Shown: in pieces, positions 41,678 through 64,000 of the stretch
Numbering within the stretch: the stretch's first letter is position 1
Layout: the number at the start of each line of letters is the position of its first letter
Origin: Clostridia bacterium
GTDB taxonomy: Bacteria; Bacillota; Clostridia; Christensenellales; CAG-138
Length of the DNA stretch: 64,000 nt
Assembly: GCA_036652795.1 (NCBI GenBank)
Contig: JAVVVD010000004.1
Span: 114,603 to 178,602, forward strand
Reading direction: 5' to 3'
Notes under the pieces: model-generated
The model's input: the letters and a program-made list of their open reading frames with translations, nothing else
What the model was told of the DNA's origin: nothing
Database searches by the model: none
Translations under genes and position numbers: made by a program

Positions 41678-41781
41678 AGGTATATTGTACAACAATACGG
41701 CTTGAATATTGAGTACTATTTTTGATTGTGTTATGATGTATTTTGATTTTATTAGTGTTTGGAGGAAATAAGGCTACATCT

Positions 41782-42567: not shown

Positions 42568-43808
42568 GCGAGCTGAGTATAATAGGCAAAAATGCACAGG
42601 AAGCAAAGCGCATTCTGGCGCTAAGCAGCCACAGCGCCCGCATGTCCGCGCTTAATTCCATTGCTGACGCTCTGCTTTGCTCAATGGATGATCTGCTTGC
42701 CGCCAACTCAAAGGATCTAGACGCAGGCAAAGCGGCCGGACTTTCCGCCGCGCTGCTTGATAGATTGGCACTTTCGCCTGAGCGCATAAGTGGCATAGCT
42801 AGCAGCATACGCGACATATCCGCCTTGCCCGATCCGCTTGGCAGGGTATTGAGTGAGGTTACGCGCCCCAATGGGCTTCTCATCCGCAAGATATCCGTAC
42901 CCATAGGCGTTATAGCTGTGATATACGAGGCGCGACCAAACGTAACTGCGGATTCCGCCGTGCTATGTCTTATGAGCGGCAATGCCTGTATACTGCGCGG
43001 CGGCAAGGAAGCTATAAATTCCAATATGGCCATTGCGCTTGTTATGCGTGCCGCCATAGAAAAAGCAGGGCTGCCGGCAAACTGTGTGCAGCTTATTAGC
43101 GATGTTTCCCGTGAAAGCGCGGCGGAGCTTATGCGTATGCGCACATATGTAGACCTGCTTATTCCGCGTGGTGGGCGCGGACTTATCCAAAATGTGGTGG
43201 ATAATTCCACAGTGCCTGTAATACAGACCGGTGCCGGAGTATGCCATACATATGTGGATAAGGCGGCAGATGTGCTCATGGCGGCGGATATAATATTCAA
43301 TGCCAAGACAAGTCGGCCCTCCGTGTGCAATGCACTTGAGTGCATACTTGTACACCGCGATATAGCCCAATCGGCATTGCCGCTTATTAGTGCGCGCCTT
43401 GATAAAAAGCATGTGCAGCTTCGCGCTGATGCGGCTACGCTTGCCATAGTGCCAAGCGCCACCCCCGCTGTGGATGCGGACTGGGGCAGCGAATATGGGG
43501 ATTACATACTAGCATGCAAGGTAGTTGGCAGCATAGACGAGGCTATAGCGCATATTCAAACCTATGGAACAGGTCACAGTGAATGCATCATTACGCAGGA
43601 CACGGCGGCGGCACAGACCTTTATGGCGGCAGTGGACGCGGCAGCTGTATACGTAAATGCCTCCACGCGCTTCACCGATGGCGGCGAGTTCGGGCTGGGC
43701 GCTGAGATAGGCATCTCCACTCAAAAGCTGCACGCACGCGGACCGCTGGGTCTAAACGAGCTTACCAGTGTAAAATATATGGTGTTTGGCAGCGGCCAGA
43801 TACGCTAG
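42564..43808 (+). CDS. proA: Glutamate-5-semialdehyde dehydrogenase
   Basis: 414 aa with the catalytic Cys region KTSRPSVCNALECILVH. The start overlaps the proB stop. Confidence 0.95.
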   Translation: MSELSIIGKNAQEAKRILALSSHSARMSALNSIADALLCSMDDLLAANSKDLDAGKAAGLSAALLDRLALSPERISGIASSIRDISALPDPLGRVLSEVTRPNGLLIRKISVPIGVIAVIYEARPNVTADSAVLCLMSGNACILRGGKEAINSNMAIALVMRAAIEKAGLPANCVQLISDVSRESAAELMRMRTYVDLLIPRGGRGLIQNVVDNSTVPVIQTGAGVCHTYVDKAADVLMAADIIFNAKTSRPSVCNALECILVHRDIAQSALPLISARLDKKHVQLRADAATLAIVPSATPAVDADWGSEYGDYILACKVVGSIDEAIAHIQTYGTGHSECIITQDTAAAQTFMAAVDAAAVYVNASTRFTDGGEFGLGAEIGISTQKLHARGPLGLNELTSVKYMVFGSGQIR

Positions 43809-43885
43809 CGCTAAGCCAAATTCTCAATAAAAGGCCATGCCTATGGCAGCCGCGACCTTTAAAAGATCCAAAAACTCCAATCAAA

Positions 43886-43909
43886 AATGACCCTCCTAAA
43901 AGGGTCATT
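43886..43909. terminator. Hairpin between convergent proA and jag
   Basis: AATGACCCT-cctaaa-AGGGTCATT with A/T-rich flanks. Confidence 0.55.
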
Positions 43910-43926
43910 CTTTAATTCATATTCTA

Positions 43927-44751
43927 TTATTTTCTTGGTTCAATTACGACTCTGCGATTTGGCTCCTCGCCTTCGCTGTGTGTTGTCACATATTGGTTAT
44001 TTTGCAGCGTTGCATGCAGCACGCGCCGTTCGTATGGGTTCATAGGCTCAAGCGTTTTGGGCTTTCCCGATGCTTTAACCTGTGCGGCAATCTTGCGCGC
44101 CAGCCTTGTGAGCGTCTCCTCGCGTTTTTCGCGGTACCCCTCTGTATCCAGCGCCACGCGCGTGTACCCTTCTTCCTTGCGGTTACGGTTTATCGTAAGC
44201 GATATAAGGTATTGCAGCGCGTCCAATGTTTCACCGCGGTGACCAATGAGTATACCCATAGTAGAGCTATCTATATATAGGCGCACAGCGTCATCCTCGC
44301 CCTTTGGCGCCGCAAGCACGCGGGCGTTTACACCCATGCGCTCCAACACGCCAGAAAGGAATTCCGCCGCCGGATTGTTCTGCGCCGCTTCTATGGAGTA
44401 ATTGGAGGATATGTTGTATGGCTTACCATCATGTGCCTCACGATCATTATGCGCTCTACGATCATTGTGCGTAGCCGGGCGCTGCGCAGCTTGCGCGCTA
44501 TGGCTATCGCCTGTTGGTCGATCTGAGCGCACCGCGTTCATAGGCGTTCTTATGTATTCAGGAATCACCATCTCCTCTGGTTCACGCTCAGTAAGACGCA
44601 CTACCGCAAGCCTGCTGCCTATGCCAAGCAGGCCCTTGCTCTCTTGGCGCAATATCTCTATCTCCACCTCGTCTATCGATATGCCAAGCTCTGAAAGTCC
44701 TTTATAGATGGCCTCGTCTATGGATTTGCCGCTTGCTTCAATGCTTCTCAT
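43927..44751 (-). CDS. jag: Jag/KhpB RNA-binding protein (Jag-N, KH, R3H)
   Basis: N-terminus IEASGKSIDEAIYKGLSELG, a KH region, and R3H in LEPMNPYERRVLHATLQ. The His/Asp/Arg-rich linker contains a short tandem duplication. Confidence 0.85.
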   Translation of the reverse strand: MRSIEASGKSIDEAIYKGLSELGISIDEVEIEILRQESKGLLGIGSRLAVVRLTEREPEEMVIPEYIRTPMNAVRSDRPTGDSHSAQAAQRPATHNDRRAHNDREAHDGKPYNISSNYSIEAAQNNPAAEFLSGVLERMGVNARVLAAPKGEDDAVRLYIDSSTMGILIGHRGETLDALQYLISLTINRNRKEEGYTRVALDTEGYREKREETLTRLARKIAAQVKASGKPKTLEPMNPYERRVLHATLQNNQYVTTHSEGEEPNRRVVIEPRK

Positions 44752-45722
44752 TTTTTTACCTCCTGTGCCAGAGGCTCACGCGGATAAACCTTGTTTAGTA
44801 TGAGATTTATCACTATCATCAGCACACTTGAAATCGTCCAGTATATTGCAAATGCGCTTGTGGCAGTTAAGCATACAAAAAAGCTCATCGCTGGGAACAT
44901 ATACATCATCAGCTTTCCCGAGCCGCCGGCCGGTGCGCTCTGCGGTTGATTCTTCTGGGTCATGAGCATCGAGAGCAAGTTGGTTCCAGCAGCAAGCAGC
45001 GGCAATATGAACCATCCGTTATTGTGGCCTGCATATATGTCCATCAGCGGCTTTACCGCTGCGGTATAGCTGGCAATTGCCTCGGGGGTATTTAGGAATA
45101 TCAGCGTATCCTTCATGGTGGTAACGCCATTTTCCACAACCGGCATCGACTGCTTCATAGCTATTCCCATATCCACAAGCTTATCCCATATCTGCGTATT
45201 CTGCTGGACGTAAAGCAGATTGCCAAGATCCTTCGTATTAAGGAATGTTGCCGCATCCATTATAACGGGCGAAAGGCCGTTATCTGGCTGCCATATGTTG
45301 TTTACCCAAAGGAACTTAAAGGATTCAAGCAGCTTCTGCGGGTTGTCATCCACAAGTATGCGGATCATCTCCTCATAGCTCCAGAAACGGAAGGCCGCTA
45401 TAAAGCAGAAGAAAAGCGGCATGGTTATAAGCATTGGCAGGCAGCTTCCCCACATGCTTACTCCGCGTTCCTTCATCAGCTTGCTCTGTTCGGCCTGCGC
45501 CTTGCGTGGATCATCCTTATACTTCTTTTGAATTTTGTTTATTTCGGGCTGTATAGCCGCCATCTTGGCGCTGGATTTGCGCGTTTTGATATCCGAAACC
45601 AGCGTCAGCAGCTTTAGCAGCACTGTAGCTACAAGTATTGTAAAAAATACACTGTTTATATTTTGATATAACCACTTCATTCCATAAAGGAACCACGTTG
45701 TTAAAAAGAAATCACCTTGCAT
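44748..45722 (-). CDS. yidC: Membrane protein insertase YidC/SpoIIIJ
   Basis: Contains MAAIQPEINKIQKKYKDDPRKAQAEQSKLMKERGVSMWGSCLPMLITMP and is polytopic. It sits in the conserved rnpA-yidD-yidC-jag order. Confidence 0.9.
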   Translation of the reverse strand: MQGDFFLTTWFLYGMKWLYQNINSVFFTILVATVLLKLLTLVSDIKTRKSSAKMAAIQPEINKIQKKYKDDPRKAQAEQSKLMKERGVSMWGSCLPMLITMPLFFCFIAAFRFWSYEEMIRILVDDNPQKLLESFKFLWVNNIWQPDNGLSPVIMDAATFLNTKDLGNLLYVQQNTQIWDKLVDMGIAMKQSMPVVENGVTTMKDTLIFLNTPEAIASYTAAVKPLMDIYAGHNNGWFILPLLAAGTNLLSMLMTQKNQPQSAPAGGSGKLMMYMFPAMSFFVCLTATSAFAIYWTISSVLMIVINLILNKVYPREPLAQEVKK

Positions 45723-45975
45723 GGCATTTTCTCACTTTCAGTCTTTTGTTTGAACCAAGTGTTTCAGGAACAGGGTCGTAGCCCCCTTTAGAGAAAGGAT
45801 TGCACCGAAGAATACGCCAAAATGCTAGCGCCACACCCTTTAGCACACCAAAGCGCTCAATTGCAATAAACGCATATCTTGAGCAGGTTGGCGTATAACG
45901 GCAGCAGGGCGCGTTCATAGGCGAAATGTAATTTTGATAGCCCTTTATCATGTACAACAATGCACGTTTAATCAT
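45712..45975 (-). CDS. yidD: Membrane protein insertion efficiency factor YidD
   Basis: YQNYISPMNAPCCRYTPTCSRYAFIAIERFG. Confidence 0.85.
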   Translation of the reverse strand: MIKRALLYMIKGYQNYISPMNAPCCRYTPTCSRYAFIAIERFGVLKGVALAFWRILRCNPFSKGGYDPVPETLGSNKRLKVRKCHAR

Positions 45976-46325
45976 TGTCGCTCTTCTTTCTCAACTAAGA
46001 GGTTAGCCTTGCGCAGCAACTTGCGCATAGTGGCGCAAATATTGGTGAAACTATCGTTCACAACCGGCTCTCGAGCAATGAAGATAAGGTTGTATCCGTT
46101 TTTCACGTCAGGTATCATTGGGCCAAAAGATTCCCTCAGCCGACGTTTAACGCGATTGCGAACCACGCTGTTGCCAATTTTTTTACTTACAGAAAAACCC
46201 ACCTGCACCAGCTTTTCTCTGGAGCGTGAATAAACAAGCACCATTGTGCGCGATGCGGCGGATTTACCCGTGCGATACGTATAGCGGAAAGCTTTGTTCC
46301 GCTTCAAAGAATAACAGCGTTTCAC
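45972..46325 (-). CDS. rnpA: Ribonuclease P protein component
   Basis: GFSVSKKIGNSVVRNRVKRRLRE (RNR motif), 117 aa, downstream of rpmH. Confidence 0.9.
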   Translation of the reverse strand: MKRCYSLKRNKAFRYTYRTGKSAASRTMVLVYSRSREKLVQVGFSVSKKIGNSVVRNRVKRRLRESFGPMIPDVKNGYNLIFIAREPVVNDSFTNICATMRKLLRKANLLVEKEERQ

Positions 46326-46391
46326 CTAAATTTTCCGATCAATATAATGTTTTCCGCCCGGATACATGCGGAGTTAATTGCTAAAGCATAC

Positions 46392-46423
46392 AGAAAAACT
46401 CACGGCAAGCAACGCTTGCCGTG
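46392..46423 (-). terminator. Hairpin terminator/attenuator between rpmH and rnpA
   Basis: On the minus strand, CACGGCAAGC-gtt-GCTTGCCGTG is followed by AGTTTTTCTG. Confidence 0.55.
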
Positions 46424-46441
46424 AACAAGTCCGGCATATGA

Positions 46442-46576
46442 TTATGCGGACAATCTTTTTCTGCCCTTCAACCTTCTGCGCGCCAACACGTTCCTGCCGT
46501 TGGCGGTCTTCATGCGCTGACGGAATCCGTGAACTTTTTTTCTCTGCCTCTTTTTAGGCTGATATGTTTGAAGCAT
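46442..46576 (-). CDS. rpmH: 50S ribosomal protein L34
   Basis: This gene is below the ORF-track length cutoff. My hand translation gives [44 protein letters not shown], with an AAGAGGTG RBS. Confidence 0.92.
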
Positions 46577-46600
46577 CGTTTACACCTCTTTCTATCGATA

Positions 46601-46629
46601 TATTAAGTCCGAACAAGCCGGGCTTGCAA
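46601..46629 (-). promoter_or_regulatory. Candidate rpmH promoter
   Basis: On the minus strand, TTGCAA, a 17-nt spacer, then TTAATA, about 25 nt upstream of the rpmH RBS. Confidence 0.4.
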
Positions 46630-46911
46630 ATCAAAACTGTCAGTTGTAGATTATATAAGAAAACTCAGGCTTCTGTCAAGGAATATGCCGCTTATTCTAA
46701 TATAATTTGATGGTACTATTCCTTATTATAACCTCATGGTGCTAGATGCACAATATGTAGTATCTACGCAGTATCTTGAATACAATTGCAAAAAAATAAC
46801 ACAATAAGCGCGTCCAAACGGCTATTGTAATGAACATCCCATTTTGTTATGATTGAATGCATGGGGCAGCCTACGCTCATTTTCATGGGCGGCTTTTTTA
46901 ATTTCGAGGGG

Positions 46912-46953
46912 TTATCCACACTTTTATTAACAATGTGGATAACTTTATCAACA
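46912..46953. promoter_or_regulatory. DnaA-box cluster upstream of dnaA (oriC left part / dnaA autoregulation)
   Basis: TTATCCACA (46912-46920, perfect), TGTGGATAA (46934-46942, perfect, inverted) and TTATCAACA (46945-46953, 8/9). Confidence 0.75.
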
Positions 46954-46967
46954 CCTAGGAGGGTATA

Positions 46968-48287
46968 ATGCAATCTATCAACGTGGTATGGGAAAGATCC
47001 CTGGTACTGCTTAAAAAAGAAATGACCGAGGTCAGCTATAATACGTGGATAATCCCGCTTGAGCCGTTATGCATCAAGGATAATTCGCTTATTTTGCTTG
47101 CTCAGAGCGACCTTGCCCGTACAACTCTTCATAATCTATATTCATCTTCTGTTACCGCGGCCGTAAACAAGGCTAACGGCACTGAGCTTATAGTATCTTT
47201 TATAGAACCGGCTGAAAAGGAGAAATATATCCCTCTCTCCCTTCCTTCCGAGGAGCATGACAGGGATTTTACACTTAATCCAAAGTATACATTCGATTCA
47301 TTTGTTATAGGCTCTTCAAACAATTTTGCCCATGCAGCCGCAAAGGCTGTGGCGGATAATCCTTCTTCGGCATACAACCCGCTTTTTATATATGGCGGCG
47401 TTGGTTTGGGTAAAACCCATCTCATGCACGCAATAGGTAACCAGATAAAAAAGCAAAACCCCAAGGCAAAGATAATATATGTTACCAGCGAAACATTTAC
47501 CAACGAGATGATACAGTCCATTCAAGAGGATAAGCGCGCACGATTTCGTAATAAATACCGCAGCGCAGATGTGCTTATGGTTGACGATATACAGTTTATA
47601 TCCGGCAAAGTTGGTACTCAGGAGGAATTTTTCAACACCTTTAATGCCCTTCATACATCAGGAAAGCAGATAATACTCAGCTCGGACAAGCCGCCTATGG
47701 AGATACCCACCCTTGAAGAGCGTTTGAGATCACGCTTTGAGGGTGGTCTTATATCCGACATACAACCACCAGATGTTGAAACGCGTATAGCGATATTAAA
47801 AAAGAAAGCACAGATGGAGAATATAGACATAGACGAAATGGTTCTGTGCTTTATTGCCGAAAAGGTAAAATCCAACATTCGTCAGCTTGAAGGCTCGCTT
47901 ACCCGCGTAATAGCGTATTCCAAGCTTACTAAAAAGCCACTTGATCTAAAACTTGCCGATACAGCCCTAAAGGATATAATACCGGGCTACGAAAACCGCA
48001 AGGTTACAATCGAACTTATTCAGCAGGTGGTGGCCGATTATTATTCAATGGAGGTAGAAGGTCTTTTTTCACAGCGCAGGACTATGGAAACAACATATCC
48101 GCGCCATATGGCCATGTTTTTATGTAAGGAACTGACGGATTGCTCATTAAAAACCATAGGAAGAAGCTTTGGCGGCAGGGATCATACCACCGTTATAAAC
48201 GCGTGCCGTAAAATAGAAGCCGACAAGAGCGCAAATCCGCATACAGTCGTTGTACTTGAGGATATAAAAAAGCGTATTCTAAAATAA
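46968..48287 (+). CDS. dnaA: Chromosomal replication initiator protein DnaA
   Basis: Contains NPLFIYGGVGLGKTHLMHAIGN, the AAA+ box VII/sensor regions, and C-terminal domain IV (FGGRDHTTVINACRKI). Confidence 0.97.
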   Translation: MQSINVVWERSLVLLKKEMTEVSYNTWIIPLEPLCIKDNSLILLAQSDLARTTLHNLYSSSVTAAVNKANGTELIVSFIEPAEKEKYIPLSLPSEEHDRDFTLNPKYTFDSFVIGSSNNFAHAAAKAVADNPSSAYNPLFIYGGVGLGKTHLMHAIGNQIKKQNPKAKIIYVTSETFTNEMIQSIQEDKRARFRNKYRSADVLMVDDIQFISGKVGTQEEFFNTFNALHTSGKQIILSSDKPPMEIPTLEERLRSRFEGGLISDIQPPDVETRIAILKKKAQMENIDIDEMVLCFIAEKVKSNIRQLEGSLTRVIAYSKLTKKPLDLKLADTALKDIIPGYENRKVTIELIQQVVADYYSMEVEGLFSQRRTMETTYPRHMAMFLCKELTDCSLKTIGRSFGGRDHTTVINACRKIEADKSANPHTVVVLEDIKKRILK

Positions 48288-48313
48288 TAAACAGCATTAA
48301 GCAATATAATATT

Positions 48314-48524
48314 TTATCAACATTCTGTTTATAATTCCTGTGGAAAGTGATTTTACCGATTGTTGAAAGTGTTGACGATGTATATAATGTTAACAACCTC
48401 CCGCTTATACATCAAATTTTCAACACGGTTATATACACCGATTTTCCAGCAGCGCAGTAGCTTTATACAGCTTATCCACACTATTAAGACCACTACTAAT
48501 GCTACTGCTAAAATAATAAATAAC
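48314..48524. promoter_or_regulatory. dnaA-dnaN intergenic origin element: DnaA boxes, DnaA-trio-like array and AT-rich tract
   Basis: TTATCAACA (48314-48322, 8/9) and TTATCCACA (48472-48480, perfect), plus several 7/9 boxes. These are followed by CTA CTA ATG CTA CTG CTA (48493-48510) and AAAATAATAAATAA (48511-48524). Confidence 0.65.
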
Positions 48525-48537
48525 AAGGAGATTCATT

Positions 48538-49644
48538 ATGCGCTTCGTTGTAGACACTCAGCAGCTCAATGCTGCTATATCCACAGTAACCAAAGCTTTA
48601 TCTACAAAAACTACAATTGGTATACTTGAGGGCATATATATCCAGGCGGCGGACAATTCCATTTTACTAAAGTGCACTGACCTATCGCTTCAAATAGAAA
48701 CTATAGTTCCTGCAACCGTTGAGGAGGATGGTGCAATTGTTTTGCCAGGACGCCTTTTTTCAGAAATGGCTCGGCGCTTCCCTAACGAACTGACAAATAT
48801 TCATACCGAAAACAATACTGCATTCCTTGAAAGCGGAAGGGCAAAAGCGACGATACAGTGCGAAAATGCCTCTGAATACCATACTATGCCAGAGGTTAAA
48901 CATGATTTTGAGGTAAAAATAAAGAAAAATCTGCTCAAAAATATGATAAAGCAGTGCATATTTGCCACAGCACAGGATGATACCAAGCCAATACTCACCG
49001 GTGTGCTGCTTGAAATTGATGGAAACAAGCTTTCGATGGTGGCGCTGGATGGATATCGCCTTGCAATAAGAAAAGAGGATATAAGCGGAATAAGCGGGGA
49101 TAAAAAGGTTGTGGTTCCTGCAAAGAGCTTTTTGGAGATAAGCCGCATATTGGAGGATACGCAAGAGGAGATAAGCGTGGTGTTTTCGGCAACACATGTG
49201 CTTATAGATATGGGGTATACAAGGATAAAAACAAGGCTGATGGAGGGTGAATTCATAAAATACAAACAGATACTTCCTGACAGCCACACTACAAGGGTGC
49301 GTTTAAAAAGAAATGAGCTGCTTGAAAGCATAGAGCGTGTATCGCTGATGGCGCGTGAAGGAAAGAGCAATATAATTAAATTCTCGTTTGAAGGTGAAAT
49401 GCTTACGCTTTCAGCTAACAGTGAACTTGGAAAAAGCAACGAGGAGCTTGAAACGGATCTTATGGGAAATGACCTTGATATAGCATTTAATTCAAAGTAT
49501 TTTTCAGATGTATTAAAAACGCTGGAGGATGAGGATATCTATCTTGATATGAATAACAACATAAGCCCATGTGTAATAAGGGGTGTAAAGGGAGATAATT
49601 TCTATTATCTGATTCTTCCTGTAAGGCTTTTTACGGGCATGTAA
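48538..49644 (+). CDS. dnaN: DNA polymerase III beta sliding clamp
   Basis: 368 aa beginning MRFVVDTQQLNAAISTVTKAL. The length is typical of the three-domain clamp, the RBS is AAGGAG, and the position downstream of dnaA is conserved. Confidence 0.97.
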   Translation: MRFVVDTQQLNAAISTVTKALSTKTTIGILEGIYIQAADNSILLKCTDLSLQIETIVPATVEEDGAIVLPGRLFSEMARRFPNELTNIHTENNTAFLESGRAKATIQCENASEYHTMPEVKHDFEVKIKKNLLKNMIKQCIFATAQDDTKPILTGVLLEIDGNKLSMVALDGYRLAIRKEDISGISGDKKVVVPAKSFLEISRILEDTQEEISVVFSATHVLIDMGYTRIKTRLMEGEFIKYKQILPDSHTTRVRLKRNELLESIERVSLMAREGKSNIIKFSFEGEMLTLSANSELGKSNEELETDLMGNDLDIAFNSKYFSDVLKTLEDEDIYLDMNNNISPCVIRGVKGDNFYYLILPVRLFTGM

Positions 49645-49659
49645 TAAAAAATAAAAAGT

Positions 49660-49694
49660 ATATTGTAATAGGGTGGCGGAAATTGTTCCGACGC
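49660..49694 (+). terminator. Imperfect hairpin plus T-run after dnaN
   Basis: AGGGTGGCGGA-aattgt-TCCGACGCCCT followed by ATTTTTT. Confidence 0.5.
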
Positions 49695-49746
49695 CCTATT
49701 TTTTAGCTAAAACAACTACTTCTTTCTTATGATAAATAAACATTTC

Positions 49747-49775
49747 TTGAAAAATGGAACAAAATGTAGTATGAT
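49747..49775 (+). promoter_or_regulatory. Candidate recF promoter
   Basis: TTGAAA, a 17-nt spacer, then TATGAT, about 40 nt upstream of the recF ATG. Confidence 0.45.
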
Positions 49776-49815
49776 AAAACAATAAATCAATAGATAATAG
49801 GGGGTGGTTGCAGGG

Positions 49816-50913
49816 ATGAAAGTGACGCGGCTTAAGCTTAATTATTTTCGCAATTACACCTCGTTGGATATTTCTCCAGGGGGAGGGATAAACGTTATAA
49901 TAGGCGATAATGCGCAGGGAAAAACAAACGCCATAGAAGCGATTTTTTTATGTGCGCTTGCAAGAAGCCATAGAACGCCAAGGGATGCCGAAATGATTAT
50001 GAACGGCTGTGCCGGCGGTTATGCGGGGGTTGATATTAGAGGTGCCGGAATAAGCCATTCGATTGAGATAAAGTTAATTGAGCAGGAACGCAAAAAGATA
50101 TTCGTGGATAAGCAGTTGCTTGGTAAAACTGGTGAGTTGATGGGAATAATCAATGTGGTTATGTTTTCACCCGAGGATCTTTCACTGGTAAAACAAGGTC
50201 CTGCGGAGAGACGCAGGTTTATGGATATGGAGCTGTGTCAGCTTCAGCCGGCATACTATTATCGTTTGCAGCAGTACAACACCGCGCTAAGGCAGCGTAA
50301 TGCAATGTTAAAGGGTGATGCGGGTGCAGTAAAGCCGGGGATGCTGGTGATGTGGGATGAGCAGCTTGCTACCCTTGGTGAAAGCATAATGAACGCTCGC
50401 AGCGCCTTTATAGATGAGCTGAGTATTATAGCAAGCAATCTACATAATACGATATCGGGCGATAAGGAGCGTTTGGCGGTATATTATATGCCTAATGTTG
50501 CTATGGATGGGCCGCTTTCGTTACATGATACGCTTATGGAAGCGCTTATGAGAAATGCGGCGGAGGATATGAGAAGGGGTTTTACAGCGGTTGGGCCGCA
50601 CAGGGATGATATAGGTATCCGTCTCAACGACACCGAGGTGCGCGTATATGGATCTCAAGGACAACAGCGCACGGCAGCGCTTTCAATCAAACTCTCTGAG
50701 TTTGAGCTTATGCGTTCGCGCAAGGGGGAATCCCCGGTTCTGCTATTGGATGATGTGTTTTCAGAGCTTGATGCTTCGCGCTCGCGGCTACTGCTAACGG
50801 CTATGGAGGATTGCCAGTGCTTTTTAACATGTACTTCACTTGGCGAAATAAAAGAGGCGGGTTTTAAAGATATGAGTATATACAATTGCGCAGGCGGCGT
50901 ATTGAAACAGTGA
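49816..50913 (+). CDS. recF: DNA replication and repair protein RecF
   Basis: MKVTRLKLNYFRNY, Walker A GDNAQGKTNAIEAI, SGGQ-like SQGQQRT, and Walker B VLLLDDVFSELD. Confidence 0.95.
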   Translation: MKVTRLKLNYFRNYTSLDISPGGGINVIIGDNAQGKTNAIEAIFLCALARSHRTPRDAEMIMNGCAGGYAGVDIRGAGISHSIEIKLIEQERKKIFVDKQLLGKTGELMGIINVVMFSPEDLSLVKQGPAERRRFMDMELCQLQPAYYYRLQQYNTALRQRNAMLKGDAGAVKPGMLVMWDEQLATLGESIMNARSAFIDELSIIASNLHNTISGDKERLAVYYMPNVAMDGPLSLHDTLMEALMRNAAEDMRRGFTAVGPHRDDIGIRLNDTEVRVYGSQGQQRTAALSIKLSEFELMRSRKGESPVLLLDDVFSELDASRSRLLLTAMEDCQCFLTCTSLGEIKEAGFKDMSIYNCAGGVLKQ

Positions 50914-50947
50914 TAATTATATTTAGCATAACTCACGAAAGGAATAG

Positions 50948-52900
<1,953 letters not shown>

Positions 52901-52960
52901 AAGAAATTGAGAGTATTTTTAAAAAATGCTCTCAGGAAAATTGTTATAACGAGGTAACAG

Positions 52961-55450
52961 ATGATCGAAGAAATGAATAACCCCAGAATAAAAATGCTTG
53001 ATATAGAGGATGAGATGAAGAAATCCTTTATCTCCTATGCCATGGCGGTAATAATAAACCGCGCGCTGCCGGATGTGAGGGACGGACTAAAGCCGGTGCA
53101 TAGGCGTATACTCTATTCAATGGGCGAGCAGGGATTTACCCCGGATAAGACCTTCCATAAATCCGCGCGTATTGTTGGCGATGTGCTTGGTAAATATCAC
53201 CCGCACGGGGATTCCTCCGTGTATGATGCGATGGTGCGCCTTGCGCAGGAATTTAATACAAGATATATGCTGGTAGAGGGTCAGGGCAACTTTGGCAGTG
53301 TGGACGGGGACTCAGCTGCGGCCATGCGTTATACCGAGGCGCGCCTTTCAAAGATGAGCATGGAAATGCTTGCGGATATAGGCAAAAACACCGTTGACTT
53401 CATGCCCAACTTCGATGAAACGCTTATGCAGCCTACAGTGCTGCCCAGCCGTTACCCTAACCTGCTTGTAAACGGGTCGGGCGGTATTGCCGTGGGTATG
53501 GCTACCAACATCCCTCCGCACAACCTTGGCGAAATAATAGACGCATATACGGCGCTTATAGATAATCCCGATCTTACGGTTGAGGATATTATGGCCATTG
53601 TTCCCGGGCCGGACTTTCCAACAGGCGGCATAATAATGGGCACTGCCGGAATAAGGCAGGCATACCGCACAGGCCGCGGCAAGGTGGTTGTGCGCGCGCG
53701 CGCAGAAATAGAGGAGCTATCGGGCGGTAAAAGCCGCATAATAGTGACTGAGATACCGTATCAGGTTAATAAGTCGCGCCTTGTGGAAAAGATAGCGGAG
53801 CTTGTGCATGAAAAGCGCATAGAGGGCATTGGAGATCTGCGCGATGAAACAGATCGCCGCGGTATGCGCATTGTTATCGAACTAAAAAGGGATGTAAATG
53901 CAAACGTAATACTCAATCAGCTCTACAAGCATACACAGATGCAGGATACATTTGGCGTAATAATGCTTGCGCTTGTTGACGGCGAGCCAAAGGTGCTAAA
54001 CATCAGGGAGATGCTGTATCACTATCTAAAATTCCAAGAGCAGGTGGTTACGCGCCGCACACAGTACGACCTTGAAAAGGCAAACGAGCGGCTGCACATA
54101 ATAGAGGGCTTGATAATAGCGCTGGATAATATAGATGAGGTCGTGGAGCTGATTAAAAAGTCACCATCAGGTCCAGTGGCAAAGGAACGGCTAACGGAGC
54201 GCTTCGGCCTTTCTGACAGACAGTCTCAGGCGATACTGGATATGCGCCTACAGCGCCTTACTGGGCTTGAACGCGAAAAGATCGAGGCGGAATACGGTGA
54301 GCTTGTGAAGATAGTCGCCTATTACGAGAGCATACTTGCAGACGAAAGCAAGCTGCTTGCCATAATCAAGGAAGAAATACTTGAGATACGCCGCCGCTAT
54401 GCCGATGCACGCCGCACGGAAATAACGCAGGTGACGGATGATATCGACCTTGACGATATAATACAGGAAGAGGACATGATAGTTACCCTGACGCACCTGG
54501 GCTATATAAAGCGCATTGCGGCGGACACCTACCGCAGTCAGAACCGTGGCGGAAAGGGCGTTATGGGGCAAACTACGCGTGATGAGGACTTTGTAGAGCA
54601 TATATTCGCCGCCAACACGCACGATCAGCTTATGTTCTTCACTAACCGTGGGCGTGCGTTCCGCATAAAGTGCTATATGCTGCCTGAGGCTGGGCGCGTT
54701 GCAAAGGGCACAGCTATAGTGAATCTGCTGCAATTGCAGGGCGATGAAAAGATAACCGCTGTATTTCCCGTTACCGCAGAGGCGGAGGGCGAGTATCTGG
54801 TGCTTGCAACACGCGATGGCGTTATAAAGAAAACGCCGATGAGCGATTTTGACAACATTAGAAAGACAGGCATTATTGCTCAGGGATTGCGCGAGGGTGA
54901 TGAGCTTATAAGCGTTATGCTCTCCACGGGCAGCGATGAATTCCTCATAGGAACGCGACAGGGCAAGTGCATAAGATTCCATGAGGATGATGTGCGCCCT
55001 ATGGGCAGGGCGGCTACCGGTGTGCGCAGCATACTGCTGGATGAGCATGATTACGTGGTGGATGCAGTTAAGATAATACCTGAGGCAACGGTACTCTCCG
55101 TTACCCAGCGTGGCATGAGCAAGCGCACTGCCGAGGATGGATACCCGTCTCAGCGGCGCGGCGGTAAAGGCGTTATAGCAATGAACCTTACGGAGCGTAC
55201 GGGCGAGCTTGTGTGCATGAAGATGTGCATTGGCGACGAGGACGTGATGATGATACGTGACGATGGCAAGGTGATGCGCACGCCTGTGGATAACATAAGC
55301 ATTATATCCCGCAATACTCAGGGCGTTAAAACGATGCATGTGGACGATGGCACTGAGGTGATGAGCGTAGCGCTGGTGCCGTATGTTGAGGAAAATGATG
55401 TGACAGAGGAAATCGAACAGGGGAGTGATCCCAGTGACGCAACAGTTTAA
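52961..55450 (+). CDS. gyrA: DNA gyrase subunit A
   Basis: [28 protein letters not shown], the QRDR segment [17 protein letters not shown], and the active-site [10 protein letters not shown]. Confidence 0.97.
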
Positions 55451-58612: not shown

Positions 58613-58630
58613 CGCAATACGGACCTTGGG

Positions 58631-58656
58631 GGGCGCGGAATTCCGTGTCCTTTTTT
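58631..58656 (+). terminator. Rho-independent terminator after the hydrolase gene
   Basis: GGGCGCGG-aatt-CCGTGTCC (8 bp including 2 G-U pairs) followed by TTTTTT. Confidence 0.6.
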
Positions 58657-58775
58657 GTTATATAGTAAATGAAGTGTTAATTTTAGGCCGCAGATTGTTA
58701 TTATAATAGTAAATATGATAGAATGACAAGCTGAGGGGAAAATATCTCCCGAAGTGTTATGAACGGAGAACTGTA

Positions 58776-61757
58776 GTGAGAATAGGGAAACTTCTTTTAG
58801 CGATAATACTCATAGCCGCGCTGGTGGTTGCCGCTGTATTTGTGATCAACAATTATACTGAGGGCGACAAAATCTCAAGCTCAACAATTGAGATAAGCGA
58901 GGTAATGAGCAGCAACAAGGGCGCCGTGCCGGATGGAAAAGGCGGCTATCCAGACTGGATTGAACTGCATAACGCCACAGACAAGGCTGTGAATATTGGC
59001 GGCTACGGCATGTCTGACGATTTGTTTAAGGGCGCAAAGTATGTGTTTCCAGCCGGTACAAGCATACCTGCGGACGGATATATAGTTGTGTTTTGCTCGG
59101 GTGAAAGCTCGGGTCCGTTGTTTGCGCCGTTTAAGCTGGCAGCAACAGATTCCGCGGTGCTGTTTGATACGGCAGGCAAGGCGCTTTGCAGTATGGATTT
59201 GCGCGCGGTGCAGGGCGGCATGTCGCTTGCTAGGGACGAGAGCGGCAGCTATATCGAAAGCAAGCCATCACCCGGCTTTGCCAACACCGATGCGGGTATT
59301 GCCGAGTATGAGGCGACGCTGCACACAACAGAGAATATAGGGGTATATATAAACGAATTCATGGCCTCGAATGCAACAACCGTGCTGGATAAAGACGGCG
59401 TATATTCGGATTGGATAGAGCTTTATAACTCAACAGACGGCGAGGTGGATCTGACGGGCTTTGGAATATCGGATACGCTTAGCCAGCCTGTAAAGGCCAG
59501 TATCCCGGATGGCACTGTGATAGGGCCAAAAAGCTGCCTTTTGATATTCTGCTCGGGCAATAAAAGCGTGGAGGGCGAAGCGGAGCTGCACATCCCATTT
59601 TCGCTTAGGGCATATGAGGAGGACATTGTATTATCGGATAAGATGGGCCGCATAATAGACAGCTATTCATATACGCGCCAGGAATCGGATGTGTCAATGG
59701 CGCGCGTGCCGGATGGCTCAGGTGAATTTGCGCCATCATCCCAGCCAACCCCGGGCTTTTTAAACACCGAGGCGGGCTACCAAGAATTTATAAAAACTGC
59801 GCAGGCGCATGGAGATCTATACATATCAGAGCTGATGGGCGCAAACGCTACGGCGCTTGCAAGCGGCAAGGAGCATTATGATTGGGTGGAGTTGCACAAT
59901 CAGGGCACTTCGCCGATAAGCCTTGCGGGGTACGGCCTTTCGGATAATCCGAATAATCCGGCCAAGTGGGTATTTCCAGATATTACGATGAATGCCGGAG
60001 AGTATCTGGTGCTGTACGCGTCCGGCCTAAACAGGGCGGATGCTCAAAAAAAAAATGATCTCCACCTGAACTTTTCTATAGCTGCATCGGGCGAAACTGT
60101 GTTTTTGTTTGGCACTGACGGAAAGCTTGTGGATAAGCTTTCCGCGGGCGCATTTTTAAACGATATCAGCTATGGCCGTGGCGAGGATGGAAGCAGATAT
60201 TACTACACCGCTTCATCACCGGGCGGTGCGAACGGCGTTGGCAAAGCGGGGATAACAAGCACCGTGGCGTTTTCAAGTGTACCGGGCATATACGATAGCC
60301 AGCTTAGCGTGCAGCTTTTGGCAGCCGATGGAGAAAGCATATATTACACGCTTGATTGCACCCAACCTACGGCAAACTCTACGCCATATACAGGCCCGAT
60401 AAACGTGGATAAAAATACGGTTATACGCGCGGCAGCGATGCGGGATGGCTATATAACGGGTCAGTCAATAAGTGGCACATATCTTTTGCGCAGCGACAAT
60501 GTAAACCATGCGGTGCCTGTGGTTTCACTGGTGATGGAACCGGACGACCTGTGGAACAGCAAAACCGGCATATACGCTATGGGCGATAAATATGATCCCT
60601 CCCTGCCCCTTTATGCGGATTCGCTCATAAGTGCCACGTATTACGAATCAAAGCTGACAGGCGATGAGGCCGCATGGGAACGGCAGGCGTCATTTTCGCT
60701 ATTCGACGAGGGCGGCAAGCAGGTATTTAACCAAAATGTAGGCGCGCGCATAGCCGGCAGCTTTGGGCGTGGACGGGCGCAAAAGGGATTTAATATCATA
60801 GCAAGGGACGAATACGGCGACAACAGGCTGGCCTATCCGTTTTTTGATAACCGCGAATACACCGAGTATAAGGCATTGGTGCTGCGTGCGGGTGGACAGG
60901 ATCAAAACCGCTCAAAGATACGCGATGAGCTTGCGGCCGGTTTGCTGGATGGCGCGGACGTAAATATGCTTGTTCAAGCGTATAGGCCATGCGTACTGTA
61001 TCTAAACGGCGAATACTGGGGCGTGTATTTTATGAAAGAAAAGCGCAATCGCTTTTTTGTGGCGCAGCACGAGGGCACGCTCAACGCGGAGGACATGAAC
61101 ATAGGCTATGCCAGCTCCCGCGTGACATATGGCACAAACGATGAATGGATGGCGCTTACGCAATACATAAACACGAATGATCTTTCCGTGCAGGCCAACT
61201 ATGATTATGTGGCTTCGCAGGTGGATTTAAACAGCTTTATGGATTATATGATCTGCGAGATATACGTAGGCAATACGGATCATGCCAATATCCAGTATTA
61301 TAAATTGCCGGGCGATAAATGGAAATGGATATATTACGATTTCTGTTGGGGCTTCGGCTCTCTCGAGCATAATACCCTTGCTTATCGCAGGGGAGATATG
61401 CCCGCCGCGAGCGGGATGTTCAATGCGCTGCTTAAAAACTCTGCATGGCGCGATGCGTTTGTTAAACGGTTTGCACAGCTGCTTAAGAGTGTGTACTCAC
61501 CAGAGCGCGTAAACGCCAAGATAGATGAGCTGTATGGCTACGTAGAGCCGGAGATCGCGCGCGAGCGCGAGAAGTTCAATCAGGGCACGTTTATGGGCGT
61601 TGCGCAAAGGGCCGAGAATCTAGGCAGCTATAAAAGCTTTATTTCCCAGATAGAGGCGCTGCACAAATATGCAAACGGACGGCCAGCGCAGATAAAATCG
61701 CAACTTAAGACGGAGTTGGGTCTTAGCGATGCATATATAAACGAGGTGTTTGGATGA
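58776..61757 (+). CDS. Membrane-anchored CotH kinase-family protein with three lamin-tail (LTD) domains and a chitobiase/Fn3-associated-type domain
   Basis: GTG start after GGAG and an N-terminal TM helix. There are three LTD-like repeats (ISEVMSSN..YPDWIELHNATDKAVNIGGYGMSDD; INEFMASN..YSDWIELYNSTDGEVDLTGFGISD; ISELMGAN..HYDWVELHNQGTSPISLAGYGLSDN). IYYTLDCTQPTANSTPYTGPI follows. CotH-like blocks are LNGEYWGVYFMKEK and WKWIYYDFCWGFG. Confidence 0.85.
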   Translation: MRIGKLLLAIILIAALVVAAVFVINNYTEGDKISSSTIEISEVMSSNKGAVPDGKGGYPDWIELHNATDKAVNIGGYGMSDDLFKGAKYVFPAGTSIPADGYIVVFCSGESSGPLFAPFKLAATDSAVLFDTAGKALCSMDLRAVQGGMSLARDESGSYIESKPSPGFANTDAGIAEYEATLHTTENIGVYINEFMASNATTVLDKDGVYSDWIELYNSTDGEVDLTGFGISDTLSQPVKASIPDGTVIGPKSCLLIFCSGNKSVEGEAELHIPFSLRAYEEDIVLSDKMGRIIDSYSYTRQESDVSMARVPDGSGEFAPSSQPTPGFLNTEAGYQEFIKTAQAHGDLYISELMGANATALASGKEHYDWVELHNQGTSPISLAGYGLSDNPNNPAKWVFPDITMNAGEYLVLYASGLNRADAQKKNDLHLNFSIAASGETVFLFGTDGKLVDKLSAGAFLNDISYGRGEDGSRYYYTASSPGGANGVGKAGITSTVAFSSVPGIYDSQLSVQLLAADGESIYYTLDCTQPTANSTPYTGPINVDKNTVIRAAAMRDGYITGQSISGTYLLRSDNVNHAVPVVSLVMEPDDLWNSKTGIYAMGDKYDPSLPLYADSLISATYYESKLTGDEAAWERQASFSLFDEGGKQVFNQNVGARIAGSFGRGRAQKGFNIIARDEYGDNRLAYPFFDNREYTEYKALVLRAGGQDQNRSKIRDELAAGLLDGADVNMLVQAYRPCVLYLNGEYWGVYFMKEKRNRFFVAQHEGTLNAEDMNIGYASSRVTYGTNDEWMALTQYINTNDLSVQANYDYVASQVDLNSFMDYMICEIYVGNTDHANIQYYKLPGDKWKWIYYDFCWGFGSLEHNTLAYRRGDMPAASGMFNALLKNSAWRDAFVKRFAQLLKSVYSPERVNAKIDELYGYVEPEIAREREKFNQGTFMGVAQRAENLGSYKSFISQIEALHKYANGRPAQIKSQLKTELGLSDAYINEVFG

Positions 61758-62446
61758 GTAACGGCGAATACCGGCACGAGCTGAAATACTATATTAACCA
61801 GGGCGATTACACGTTGCTTTCAAAAAAGCTATCGCTTACGATGGAGCAGGATAGGTTTGCGCGCAAAAATGGAGGCGAGTACTTTATACGCAGCCTGTAT
61901 TTTGACGATGTTAATGATACGGCCTTTCGCGATAAGCTAAACGGCGTGGATCAGCGTGACAAGGTGCGCATCCGGATATATAATATGACGGATGATACAA
62001 TAAAGCTGGAATGCAAGCATAAGCAAAACGGCTATATACTTAAGGATTCGATTCCGCTTTCGCGCAGGGAATGCGATGCGCTGCTATCAGGCACATACTC
62101 ATTCCTGCTGCAAAGGAAGGAGCCGTTTGCGCATGCGATGTTCGCCAGATTTGCTACAAGCCGGCTGCTGCCATGCGTGATGGTGGACTATACCAGGGAG
62201 GCATATACATTCCCACTTGAGGATGTGCGCGTGACATTCGACAAAAACCTGCATACCGGCTATAGAAGTGTGGCGCTTTTTGATGCGCATGCGCCTACAT
62301 ACCCGGTTATAGATAGGTACGATATGGTGATGGAGGTTAAGTTTAATAAATATCTTTCCACCTATATCCGCTCTTTGATCCAAACCGAAGCGCATACGCG
62401 CAGCGCCATAAGCAAGTACTGCCTGTGCCGCAGGTTTGAACTGTGA
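61754..62446 (+). CDS. VTC-domain (polyphosphate polymerase-like, triphosphate-tunnel/CYTH-type) protein
   Basis: 230 aa containing YRHELKYYI, IRSLYFDD, VRIRIYN and MEVKFN, the beta-strand pattern of VTC/TTM domains. The ATG overlaps the cotH stop (ATGA). Confidence 0.75.
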   Translation: MSNGEYRHELKYYINQGDYTLLSKKLSLTMEQDRFARKNGGEYFIRSLYFDDVNDTAFRDKLNGVDQRDKVRIRIYNMTDDTIKLECKHKQNGYILKDSIPLSRRECDALLSGTYSFLLQRKEPFAHAMFARFATSRLLPCVMVDYTREAYTFPLEDVRVTFDKNLHTGYRSVALFDAHAPTYPVIDRYDMVMEVKFNKYLSTYIRSLIQTEAHTRSAISKYCLCRRFEL

Positions 62447-62493
62447 TACTACGTAATTATAAAGATATAAACACATTCAGGAGGAAACCATAA

Positions 62494-63141
62494 ATGAAAC
62501 TAAGCGACCTTATCTCCATAACACTCAACCCACTACAGGTGCTCCTTACGCTTGTGGTTGCGTTGTTTGTGGGCCTTTTCGTGTATTTCATCTATAAGAA
62601 AACGTTTGGCGGCGTGATGTATTCGCGCAACTTCAACATCAGCCTTGTGATGCTTACGCTGGTTACAAGCATGATGCTGATGCTGATCAACAACAATCTT
62701 ACGCTAAGCCTTGGCATGGTCGGTGCGCTGAGCATAATCCGCTTTAGAACTGCCGTAAAGGATCCCATTGACACCGTGTTCATGTTCTGGGCGGTAGGCG
62801 AGGGCATAGCCATTGGCACGAAATATTACGACGTGGCCGTGATAGCGGGCTTGGGCATAGGCGTTATAATGGTGCTGCTCAATACGTTTAAAAGTAAAGG
62901 CTCAATGCCGTACCTGCTGATCATCCACTATGATGAGGCAGCTTCCGCGCACGTCAAGCAGATGATAAAGCAATTGCCCGGCGCAAGACTAAAGAGCAAG
63001 ACCGCACAGCGCGACGGTATAGAGCTTACGCTTGAGCTGCGTCTGCATGATAGCGAAACGGGCTTTGTGGAAAAATTCCTGCGGGTGGAAGGCGTGTATG
63101 ACGCTACGCTGATTTCGCATCAGGGCGATATCGTGGCATAA
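62494..63141 (+). CDS. DUF4956-family membrane protein
   Basis: Four TM helices, the conserved SLGMVGALSIIRFRTAVKDPIDTVFMFWAVGEGIA block, and a soluble C-terminal domain. AGGAGG RBS. Confidence 0.8.
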   Translation: MKLSDLISITLNPLQVLLTLVVALFVGLFVYFIYKKTFGGVMYSRNFNISLVMLTLVTSMMLMLINNNLTLSLGMVGALSIIRFRTAVKDPIDTVFMFWAVGEGIAIGTKYYDVAVIAGLGIGVIMVLLNTFKSKGSMPYLLIIHYDEAASAHVKQMIKQLPGARLKSKTAQRDGIELTLELRLHDSETGFVEKFLRVEGVYDATLISHQGDIVA

Positions 63142-63150: not shown

Positions 63151-63173
63151 AAGGGCGCACGGTGTGCGCCCTT
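63151..63173. terminator. Bidirectional hairpin between the DUF4956 gene and ribU
   Basis: AAGGGCGCAC-ggt-GTGCGCCCTT. Confidence 0.6.
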
Positions 63174-63198: not shown

Positions 63199-63759
63199 TT
63201 AGCTATTGCCCGTGCGGCGTTTGGGGAAAAGCAGCCGCTCCGTGGCCTTATACAGCATGAAAGTGACCACAGAGTTGATGCCTGCCTTGATTGCGTTAAA
63301 CGGAACTATTATTGGCAGTATCATGGCTTTAACAGCATCCAATTGTAGGCCGTTAAAGTGCACTGTAAAGATGAAGTTAAGTGGAATCATAAGCGCTATC
63401 ATTGTCAAGCTGCCCAGCACAAGGCTGATAATTGCGCCGCGCTTTGTGTGGAAACGCCGGTATATAAAGCCTGCCACAAGCACAAACCCGCCGGTAGCAA
63501 AAAAATGCATCAGCGCGCCTACCCATCCGCTTTGGGGTGATACCAGCAGCCATTGTAGCGCACTTACTACCGCGGTAAGCGCAAGGCCGGCAAATGGACC
63601 AAACATGAACGTGCCTATCAGGATAGGTACATCGGCCATGTCGTATTCGAGATATGGCGCAGCCGGGAATATTGAAAAACGCACCACATACATCAATATT
63701 AGGGCTACGGCTGCAAGCATCGCCTGCTTGACAAGTATAAGTACTTTTTCGTTACGCAT
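63199..63759 (-). CDS. ribU: ECF-type riboflavin transporter S-component (RibU-like)
   Basis: 186-aa protein with about 5-6 TM helices, directly downstream of an FMN riboswitch. Confidence 0.8.
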   Translation of the reverse strand: MRNEKVLILVKQAMLAAVALILMYVVRFSIFPAAPYLEYDMADVPILIGTFMFGPFAGLALTAVVSALQWLLVSPQSGWVGALMHFFATGGFVLVAGFIYRRFHTKRGAIISLVLGSLTMIALMIPLNFIFTVHFNGLQLDAVKAMILPIIVPFNAIKAGINSVVTFMLYKATERLLFPKRRTGNS

Positions 63760-63781: not shown

Positions 63782-63976
63782 TAAAAAATACCCCCCTGAA
63801 AATATACAGGGGGGTAAAAACGATTAAAATAGGCTTCTTTCGTCCGGACTATACCGTCGGCGTTGGAATATCGGAGCCTTTTGCTCCCACCAAACTCAGC
63901 CGCGGTTAAGCGGCTCGCGGGCTCGTCGGACGTCATCCGCTTTACCGCCGGTGTGGAATTTCACCACCCCCCGAAG
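63782..63976 (-). promoter_or_regulatory. FMN (RFN) riboswitch with terminator expression platform
   Basis: The minus strand reads CTTCGGGGGGTGGTGAAATTCCACACCGGCGGTAAAGC...CCCGCGAGC...GTTTGGTGGGAGC...GATATTCCAACGCCGACGGTATAGTCCGGACGAAAGAAG. The terminator CCCCCCTG-tatatttt-CAGGGGGG plus TATTTTTTA follows at 63782-63814. A TATAAT lies at 63984-63989 on the minus strand. Confidence 0.9.
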
Positions 63977-64000
63977 CTACGTTATTATAGCTCAAGCATT

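Follow-up and report, generated by a model that had tools for sequence, protein, structure and literature searches.

Textbook accounts assign polyphosphate synthesis to PPK1/PPK2 in bacteria and to VTC in eukaryotes. A three-gene group at positions 58776-63141 of a 64,000-nucleotide stretch of a Clostridia genome (contig JAVVVD010000004.1 of assembly GCA_036652795.1, positions 114,603 to 178,602; hereafter the window, to whose first letter all positions refer) raises the question of whether bacteria possess a VTC-type machinery of their own. The trio consists of a cotH-like gene (gene 1), a VTC gene (gene 2) and a gene for a DUF4956 membrane protein (gene 3), and an earlier note made from the sequence had proposed it as a bacterial counterpart of the VTC complex, with a cytoplasmic polymerase, a membrane conduit and a surface CotH module. 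The analysis described here indicates that the trio is a still uncharacterised form of VTC polyphosphate machinery in which the membrane partner differs and a surface kinase has joined. The Vtc4-like enzyme, the surface CotH protein and the co-occurrence of the three families stood up, whereas a DUF202-type conduit did not, and the combination proved to have been reported before.

The comparison with yeast is carried by gene 2. Its product (61754-62446), described in the earlier note as a soluble VTC/triphosphate-tunnel protein, was placed in the VTC family by Pfam above the curated cut-off (E=1.4e-39, 136.4 bits versus 23, profile positions 2-230 of 235), and the description was borne out as well by profile searches, by AlphaFold and PDB matches and by the lack of a hydrophobic segment. 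Given that single-sequence PDB searches of the trio proteins were too weak (Vtc2 was the sole match of the VTC protein, E=0.024), profile searches were needed, and a profile from 36 bacterial VTC members matched yeast Vtc4 in the PDB with E=8e-14. The alignment of 36 diverse bacterial members holds 24 invariant columns. Vtc4 residues were mapped by counting along the printed profile alignment, which reproduces the published Vtc4 numbering. On this mapping R7, K11, R72, R74, K88, K97, Y146, R148 and R159 of the window protein correspond to R196, K200, R264, R266, K281, K294, Y359, R361 and R373 of Vtc4, respectively, and each is invariant in the 36 bacterial members. In a second, non-significant aligned stretch, E194 and K196 correspond to E426 and K428, and E194 is again invariant. 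The tunnel residues for substrate binding and catalysis that were checked against Vtc4 are therefore retained in the window protein.

The structural comparison gave the same ranking. The AlphaFold model of the VTC protein (predicted local distance difference test score, pLDDT, 81.8; predicted template modelling score, pTM, 0.80) had yeast Vtc4 structures as its first nine PDB matches (best E=4e-13, template modelling scores 0.56-0.68), followed by Vtc3, Vtc2 and then hydrolytic tunnel enzymes such as ygiF (E=1e-8) and CYTH proteins. The tunnel fold is common to the bacterial protein and the yeast VTC complex (Vtc4 with Vtc1/2/3/5; 3g3q, 7ytj, 8i6v), Vtc4 being the best structural match, and in both systems the enzyme is tied to a membrane component. 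By contrast, the window protein is a free-standing 230-residue domain without the SPX domain or the C-terminal transmembrane domain of yeast Vtc4. Because neither the window protein nor any of 60 homologues carries a hydrophobic segment, the VTC protein is predicted to be cytoplasmic. The family is large: phmmer against 1.84 billion cluster representatives returned 4456 relatives at E<=1e-3 and 2046 at E<=1e-10, and a genome-contig scan of a collection with one genome per species found them in at least 598 genomes.

Long VTC homologues (365-620 residues) were considered as CotH-VTC fusion proteins and rejected as such; they carry K/R/E-rich low-complexity N-terminal extensions with no Pfam domain. 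Extensions of this kind (80-400 residues, rich in K, R, E and P and disordered-looking) are present in P0243, P0244, P0252, P0273 and about 30 other VTC representatives. The window protein lacks the extension that many of its closest homologues have.

Gene neighbourhoods were sampled as the best-scoring 80 loci from each of two scans, one of genomes and one of metagenomes, and neighbours were found by iterated hidden Markov models (HMMs), built from the window proteins, on six-frame open reading frames (ORFs). The genome loci, with VTC proteins 41-74% identical to that of the window, come from Clostridia, Oscillospiraceae, Christensenellales, Syntrophomonas and the Bacilli Jeotgalibacillus, Exiguobacterium and Cytobacillus, and the counts use the 51 with at least 4.5 kb on both sides. 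The metagenome loci belong to a VTC clade 33-40% identical to the window's, and 29 of them are well flanked. DUF4956 was the same-strand neighbour of VTC in 51/51 genome and 29/29 metagenome well-flanked loci, and every DUF4956 match in the genome-contig sample adjoined a VTC gene. CotH was found in 44 of the 51 genome loci and, by HMM, in 24 of the 29 metagenome loci; four of the five remaining metagenome loci have a 940-residue, transmembrane-anchored beta-helix protein directly upstream, the four being mutually homologous and one of them passing Pfam CotH. Gene order varied among the genome loci (cotH-VTC-DUF4956 in 27, cotH-DUF4956-VTC in 15, VTC-DUF4956-cotH in two, the VTC/DUF4956 pair alone in seven), the cotH-to-VTC gap had a median of 12 nucleotides with 20 of 73 pairs overlapping, and two plasmid copies with 31-32% VTC identity hold all three genes. 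That the pairing is kept through rearranged orders and down to about 30% identity shows that linkage is under selection. VTC and DUF4956 are thus an invariant core with CotH as a very frequent third member, and the three families co-occur far beyond chance, as the proposal of a joint system presupposes.

The membrane partner is where the bacterial trio departs from yeast, with an MgtC-like DUF4956 protein in place of the DUF202-type three-helix subunits of the VTC complex. The gene 3 product matched Pfam DUF4956 (PF16316; E=2e-10, 41.1 bits versus a cut-off of 30.6), and so did 33 of 33 VTC-neighbouring gene products. The earlier note had read it as a plain protein of four transmembrane helices; the AlphaFold model, itself of low confidence, instead gives five helices (residues 13-37, 45-66, 69-84, 91-107 and 112-131) followed by a C-terminal ACT-like domain that the note had missed. 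The family has an invariant loop, RFRTAVKDPxD (residues 83-93, with R83, R85, K89 and D93 invariant). The loop charges fit the positive-inside rule with an N-out, C-in topology, and the RFRTAVKDPxD loop and the C-terminal domain are accordingly predicted to be cytoplasmic.

Three weak, independent signals, all below threshold, make DUF4956 look like a distant relative of MgtC/SapB/YhiD. Pfam MgtC matched the window protein with 15.3 bits against a cut-off of 31.4, and sub-threshold matches of the same kind occurred in 32 of 33 DUF4956 members (best E=4e-4). An hhalign comparison with E. coli YhiD, which is also 215 residues long, gave 132 collinear columns with E=0.0019 and a probability of 14%. 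Foldseek searches among 350,000 chains with the DUF4956 model placed the C-terminal domain of M. tuberculosis MgtC first (2lqj, E=4e-3) and a P. aeruginosa MgtC domain eighth, the rest of the list being ACT domains; a single-sequence PDB search with the protein returned no match. The size is likewise similar and the architecture may be as well, the low-confidence model suggesting an ACT-like cytoplasmic domain after five membrane helices. By contrast with MgtC proteins, DUF4956 has its own invariant loop, stays below the family thresholds throughout and always adjoins a VTC gene in the sampled loci; we know of no VTC-gene link described for MgtC proteins.

The product of gene 1 had been described as a membrane-anchored, probably extracytoplasmic CotH-family protein, and Pfam, the 5jd9 structure match, hydropathy and charge distribution agree on this. 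Pfam found three LTD repeats, a CHB_HEX_C_1/Fn3_assoc module and a CotH domain (E=2.9e-41, 142.5 bits versus 23.8); the sole match in a single-sequence PDB search was a weak one of the CHB_HEX_C module to the beta-hexosaminidase C-terminal domain 6q63. A profile of 26 partner CotH domains matched the B. cereus CotH structure 5jd9 with E=2.5e-12. The catalytic-loop motif GNTDxGN (N833, D835, N838) and a YD motif (D855), both invariant or almost invariant, line up with NFD..HN and WDYD of the B. cereus protein and appear to include an equivalent of B. subtilis D228. Even among 45 very diverse CotH partners, N838 and D855 hardly vary. Judged from its sequence, the protein is probably catalytically competent. 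R2 and K5 precede the helix at residues 6-24 and an acidic stretch follows it, indicating an N-in orientation with the remaining 968 residues predicted outside the cell, and an N-terminal anchor or lipobox is present in 52 of 61 CotH partners, those of Bacilli having lipoprotein-type signal sequences. The 45 partner architectures include LTD in 19, CHB_HEX_C_1 in 18 and a right-handed beta-helix in 13, besides short forms of CotH alone; LTD, CHB_HEX_C and beta-helix modules occur on extracellular proteins, many of them directed at glycans. The predicted split, with VTC in the cytoplasm, the multi-pass DUF4956 in the membrane and CotH outside, is conserved among the loci.

The window protein shares the atypical kinase fold, the catalytic-loop Asp/Asn and the metal-binding Asp with Bacillus CotH (5jd9) and Fam20C-type secretory kinases, and resembles the latter in its predicted location outside the cytoplasm. 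The match of Pfam CotH and of the profile to a B. cereus spore-coat protein raises the possibility that gene 1 encodes a spore-coat kinase whose neighbours serve sporulation. We consider this very improbable. Whereas spore-coat CotH of Bacillus resides in the mother-cell cytoplasm with the partners cotB/cotG, the window protein is membrane-anchored, predicted to be extracytoplasmic and fused to the extracellular-type LTD and CHB_HEX_C modules (a beta-helix in other clades), no cotB/cotG-like neighbour was detected, and the flanks of the trio in the window are housekeeping genes. Moreover, the trio also occurs in non-sporulating streptococci and bifidobacteria (PMC7112168). Separately, a divergent CotH subfamily of about 940 residues, transmembrane-anchored and fused to a right-handed beta-helix, lies upstream of VTC in loci L092, L105, L110 and L116; the custom CotH HMM missed it and Pfam catches only the L105 member (E=7e-10).

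The wider neighbourhoods of related loci connect the trio with exopolysaccharides. In Bacilli loci, PelG, a PelF-type glycosyltransferase (DUF3492+GT1) and DUF2194 lie upstream of the trio, a human-gut metagenome group has a PelG-like gene at this side, and on the Pseudobutyrivibrio plasmid pNP95 the trio sits inside a large polysaccharide cluster. A Planococcus maritimus plasmid (NZ_CP059541.1, locus L088, 5389-12824) carries VTC, DUF4956 and CotH followed by a 689-residue hypothetical protein, a HEAT-repeat protein and a glycosyltransferase. The embedding of related loci in gene clusters of the Pel, GT2-plus-deacetylase or other exopolysaccharide type suggests that the output of the trio helps build or modify the cell-surface matrix. 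In CotH-less loci the neighbour is often an LTD-only protein, a PMT-type glycosyltransferase, a GH130 fusion or an adhesin.

Two further neighbours were seen beside the core. In locus L096 (9394-10038) an inorganic pyrophosphatase gene starts at the DUF4956 stop, which fits phosphoanhydride chemistry in the operon. In 16 environmental metagenome loci (L121, 6196-7086, and 15 others) a fourth gene of about 300 codons directly follows DUF4956. Its product combines a signal peptide and a C-terminal membrane anchor with two conserved motifs, YFDTPxLxLL and KHPLxxxIKRKER; its profile had Vtc4 as its best, weak PDB match (E=0.31 over about 40 residues) and gave E=0.008 over 32 columns against the VTC family in hhalign. 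This fourth gene may encode an extracytoplasmic tunnel-like domain.

The combination itself is known from the literature. Whitfield et al. (2020, PLoS Pathog) describe an accessory group of cotH, a 'poly-phosphate polymerase', DUF4956 and DUF4832 that directly adjoins Gram-positive pel operons in streptococci, clostridia and bifidobacteria, and go no further than to suggest that phosphorylation by CotH might regulate Pel (PMC7112168). Lepp et al. (2010) show VTC-'tubulin'-CotH genes in NELoc-2 of C. perfringens, with the DUF4956 genes labelled 'tubulin/FtsZ' (PMC2879425), a label that appears spurious; the gene order of the Planococcus maritimus plasmid matches the one published for NELoc-2. 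The remaining mentions of the trio genes are table entries, and a 2023 review on polyphosphate evolution confines its survey of VTC to eukaryotes. As the note had supposed, no functional study of the trio was found in the literature searched, most subscription papers being outside its reach. The window locus is therefore a further instance of an already noticed gene group and not new as an observation. It has the same three families as the Pel accessory group and NELoc-2, contiguous and co-directional. By contrast, its CotH is a form of about 1000 residues with three LTD repeats, and the scanned window ORFs and the flanks 10 kb beyond the window contained neither pelDEA(DA)FG or other pel genes nor a glycosyltransferase or DUF4832 gene. 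What is added here is the MgtC-like nature of DUF4956, the strict VTC-DUF4956 pairing and the conserved topological split.

These results can be joined in a model of membrane polyphosphate synthesis, export and a surface CotH enzyme that uses or modifies the product, to which as a whole we give slightly less than an even chance. The VTC protein would most likely be a cytoplasmic Vtc4-type tunnel enzyme polymerising the gamma-phosphate of a nucleoside triphosphate into polyphosphate. DUF4956, whose strictly conserved basic loop is predicted on the inner face, would dock the polymerase at the membrane and pass the nascent chain into or across it, perhaps as an oligomer, in analogy of function and not in homology to the transmembrane channel of Vtc1/3/4. 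The CotH protein, in turn, would act on or with the exported polymer. It might take polyphosphate as phosphoryl donor where ATP is scarce; alternatively, it might modify surface glycans or proteins with phosphate or polyphosphate. The Pel polymer is partly deacetylated and cationic, and a polyanion delivered beside it would be a plausible matrix partner. A more specific form of the model, in which a Vtc4-like polymerase on an MgtC-like protein makes up a bacterial synthase-translocase and surface CotH kinases use polyphosphate in place of ATP to phosphorylate or polyphosphate-tag exopolysaccharides or wall proteins, is a speculative one that we regard as unlikely.

Several points weigh against the synthesis-and-export model. 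Profile comparison of DUF4956 with E. coli YidH (DUF202), as a relative of Vtc1, gave nothing, and since the protein resembles MgtC/YhiD instead, the Vtc1-type conduit of the earlier note is unsupported by homology and possible as analogy only; a conduit role is something that we purely infer. MgtC-family proteins are, to our knowledge, not known as channels, and the DUF4956 model has a pLDDT of 55 from a shallow alignment. With a pI of 4.7 and a net charge of -43, the ectodomain of CotH is strongly acidic, which speaks against a polyanion being bound by simple electrostatics. The scanned window ORFs and the 10 kb beyond the window yielded no ppk, ppx, pel or exopolysaccharide gene, and the window's trio stands alone among housekeeping genes near dnaA/gyrA. 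The sampled loci are phylogenetically related, so that the counts are not independent events. With regard to the enzyme, S220-K221 in the last helix, also invariant in the 36 bacterial members, would by position be S457-K458 of Vtc4, a less secure equivalence than the others. Bacterial VTC members have an invariant Glu (E9) at the position of Vtc4 T198, giving R-x-E-x-K, which recalls the ExExK of hydrolytic CYTH enzymes and makes a triphosphatase or other tunnel chemistry possible. No measured activity of any bacterial VTC protein was found in the literature, and sequence alone does not settle polymerase versus hydrolase; bacterial polyphosphate synthesis and translocation are inferred from sequence and model in this comparison with yeast.

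The trio could also be a signalling or regulatory module and not a polymerase. The tunnel domain would bind or hydrolyse triphosphate or polyphosphate and, through DUF4956 and its ACT-like domain, regulate membrane processes such as energy or phosphate homeostasis or exopolysaccharide synthesis, and CotH would be a surface kinase that regulates the matrix. The invariant E9, the apparent MgtC-like architecture of DUF4956 and the regulatory role of the CotH kinase proposed by Whitfield et al. (PMC7112168) would suit such a module. However, Vtc4 ranks well above the hydrolytic tunnel enzymes among the structural matches (4e-13 versus 1e-8 for ygiF), the Vtc4-specific basic tunnel residues are retained, and the CotH kinase domain lies outside the cell, unlike known regulators of Pel synthesis. 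We therefore hold this module to be quite improbable.

Retention of the VTC catalytic residues and fold is also expected if the trio is a membrane-tethered, purely intracellular polyphosphate synthase, providing a store or buffer that is independent of PPK, with a metabolite sensor in the ACT-like domain and with CotH merely co-regulated, having no common substrate. DUF4956 resembles the MgtC-like family, which is known from regulatory, not transport, roles; CotH is absent from some loci, and its ectodomain is acidic. However, CotH is kept in about 85-95% of loci, in two divergent clades and three gene orders, and often overlaps the VTC start codon, and translational coupling of an extracytoplasmic enzyme to cytoplasmic storage is hard to explain. 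In addition, CotH-less loci often have another surface- or glycan-related neighbour gene. An intracellular store is thus an unlikely reading, albeit one with some weight, and we prefer synthesis coupled to export and to a surface CotH enzyme.

The searches reveal a Vtc4-like family that is widespread in bacteria and that, in the sampled loci, never lacks its membrane partner and mostly has a surface kinase beside it as well. If active, the trio would represent a third bacterial route to polyphosphate and a candidate origin of, or parallel to, the eukaryotic VTC machinery; in gut Clostridia, streptococci and bifidobacteria it would be a candidate for the supply of polyphosphate at the cell surface. 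It would also give DUF4956 its first functional context and perhaps a clue to the MgtC superfamily. Since it accompanies exopolysaccharide loci, Pel-type ones among them, as well as NELoc-2, the trio may supply a component missing from the picture of matrix chemistry in Gram-positive biofilms. The more specific synthase-translocase model, if true, would account for what powers kinases outside the cytoplasm and would lend the MgtC superfamily a transport-linked function.

At the nucleotide level, the statements of the earlier note on the trio hold, with two corrections that concern the downstream hairpin and the topology of gene 3. Tight packing on one strand, the cotH stop/VTC start overlap (ATGA at 61754-61757), the 47-nucleotide gap before the DUF4956 gene with its AGGAGG ribosome-binding site, and flanking terminators make the trio one compact, co-directional unit (Table 1). 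The upstream terminator that the note had placed before gene 1 was seen as a hairpin with a T-run, and forms the 5' boundary of the unit. The hairpin downstream of gene 3 was also found, whereas its reading as the trio's own terminator needs correction: the scan scored the minus strand, where the T-run lies, and on the plus strand nothing but TTTAAAAT comes after the hairpin. It probably serves in both directions, as a terminator shared by the trio and the convergent ECF S-component gene. The 5' leader of the trio holds no known riboswitch in Rfam, the only match being at chance level (E=0.14).

Table 1. Features of the trio and its surroundings in the window
Feature	Position	Strand	Details
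Gene 1, cotH-like	58776-61757	+	993 aa, GTG start; GGAG 8 nt upstream
Signal-anchor helix of gene 1 product, N-terminal, residues 6-24	58791-58847	+	hydropathy 3.45
Three lamin-tail (LTD, Ig-like) repeats, residues 34-141, 185-299, 342-457	58875-60146	+	E=1.8e-46
CHB_HEX_C_1/Fn3_assoc, residues 503-569	60282-60482	+	Pfam; domain type of glycan-active enzymes
CotH atypical-kinase domain, residues 658-970	60747-61685	+	Pfam and profile
Gene 2, VTC	61754-62446	+	230 aa, soluble; start overlaps cotH stop
Gene 3, DUF4956 membrane protein	62494-63141	+	215 aa
Five-helix membrane domain, predicted, residues 13-131	62530-62886	+	AlphaFold secondary structure
ACT-like/NapD-like beta-alpha-beta-beta-alpha-beta domain, predicted, residues 140-207	62911-63114	+	model; NapD E=0.0018; Foldseek
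Ribosome-binding site of gene 3, AGGAGG	62479-62484	+	sequence read; 9 nt before ATG
Terminator-like hairpin, ends upstream alpha/beta-hydrolase gene	58628-58653	+	11-pair stem, then TTTTGTT
Sigma-70-like promoter candidate	58695-58724	+	TTGTTA, 18-nt spacer, TAGAAT, TG extended-10; consensus match only
G+C-rich palindromic hairpin between convergent gene ends	63151-63173		hairpin scan and sequence read
Convergent ECF-transporter S-component gene	63199-63759	-	downstream of flavin mononucleotide (FMN) riboswitch
FMN riboswitch	63828-63982	-	84.8 bits, E=7e-18
Origin region	38333-55450		mnmG and mnmE on minus strand, then dnaA (46968-48287), dnaN, recF, gyrB, gyrA

An antisense ORF (62099-62476, minus strand) overlaps the VTC gene, and antisense ORFs of 125-300 codons likewise occur in 27 related loci. 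The apparent genes of about 300 codons in these 27 loci were rejected as antisense shadow ORFs over the VTC gene; such ORFs are probably an artefact of codon composition and not genes.

The window is the chromosomal origin region of a Clostridia genome, with the gene order mnmE, mnmG, dnaA, dnaN, recF, gyrB, gyrA, CCA/polyA polymerase, C26 amidotransferase, alpha/beta hydrolase, the trio, ribU (minus strand), tatD and metG. A stretch of about 1.2 kb at 45722-46968 without an ORF of at least 150 codons is a candidate oriC. None of the three trio proteins matched an NCBIfam model or a PADLOC defence-system model. The same window protein was found in two further metagenome-assembled genomes, GCA_036649195.1 and GCA_036655635.1, and close relatives are labelled Christensenellales or Clostridia. 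Because the FMN riboswitch lies upstream of it, the ECF S-component gene probably encodes a RibU-type riboflavin transporter; a hairpin at 63789-63816 on the minus strand resembles the terminator of this riboswitch. Elsewhere in the window, a thiamine pyrophosphate (TPP) riboswitch (9148-9241, minus strand, 71.7 bits) lies upstream of a minus-strand ORF at 8403-9077. Two plus-strand genes that are unrelated to the trio encode a 563-residue protein with three bacterial SH3 domains (28907-30598) and a 451-residue DUF815 (AAA-type) protein (25289-26644).

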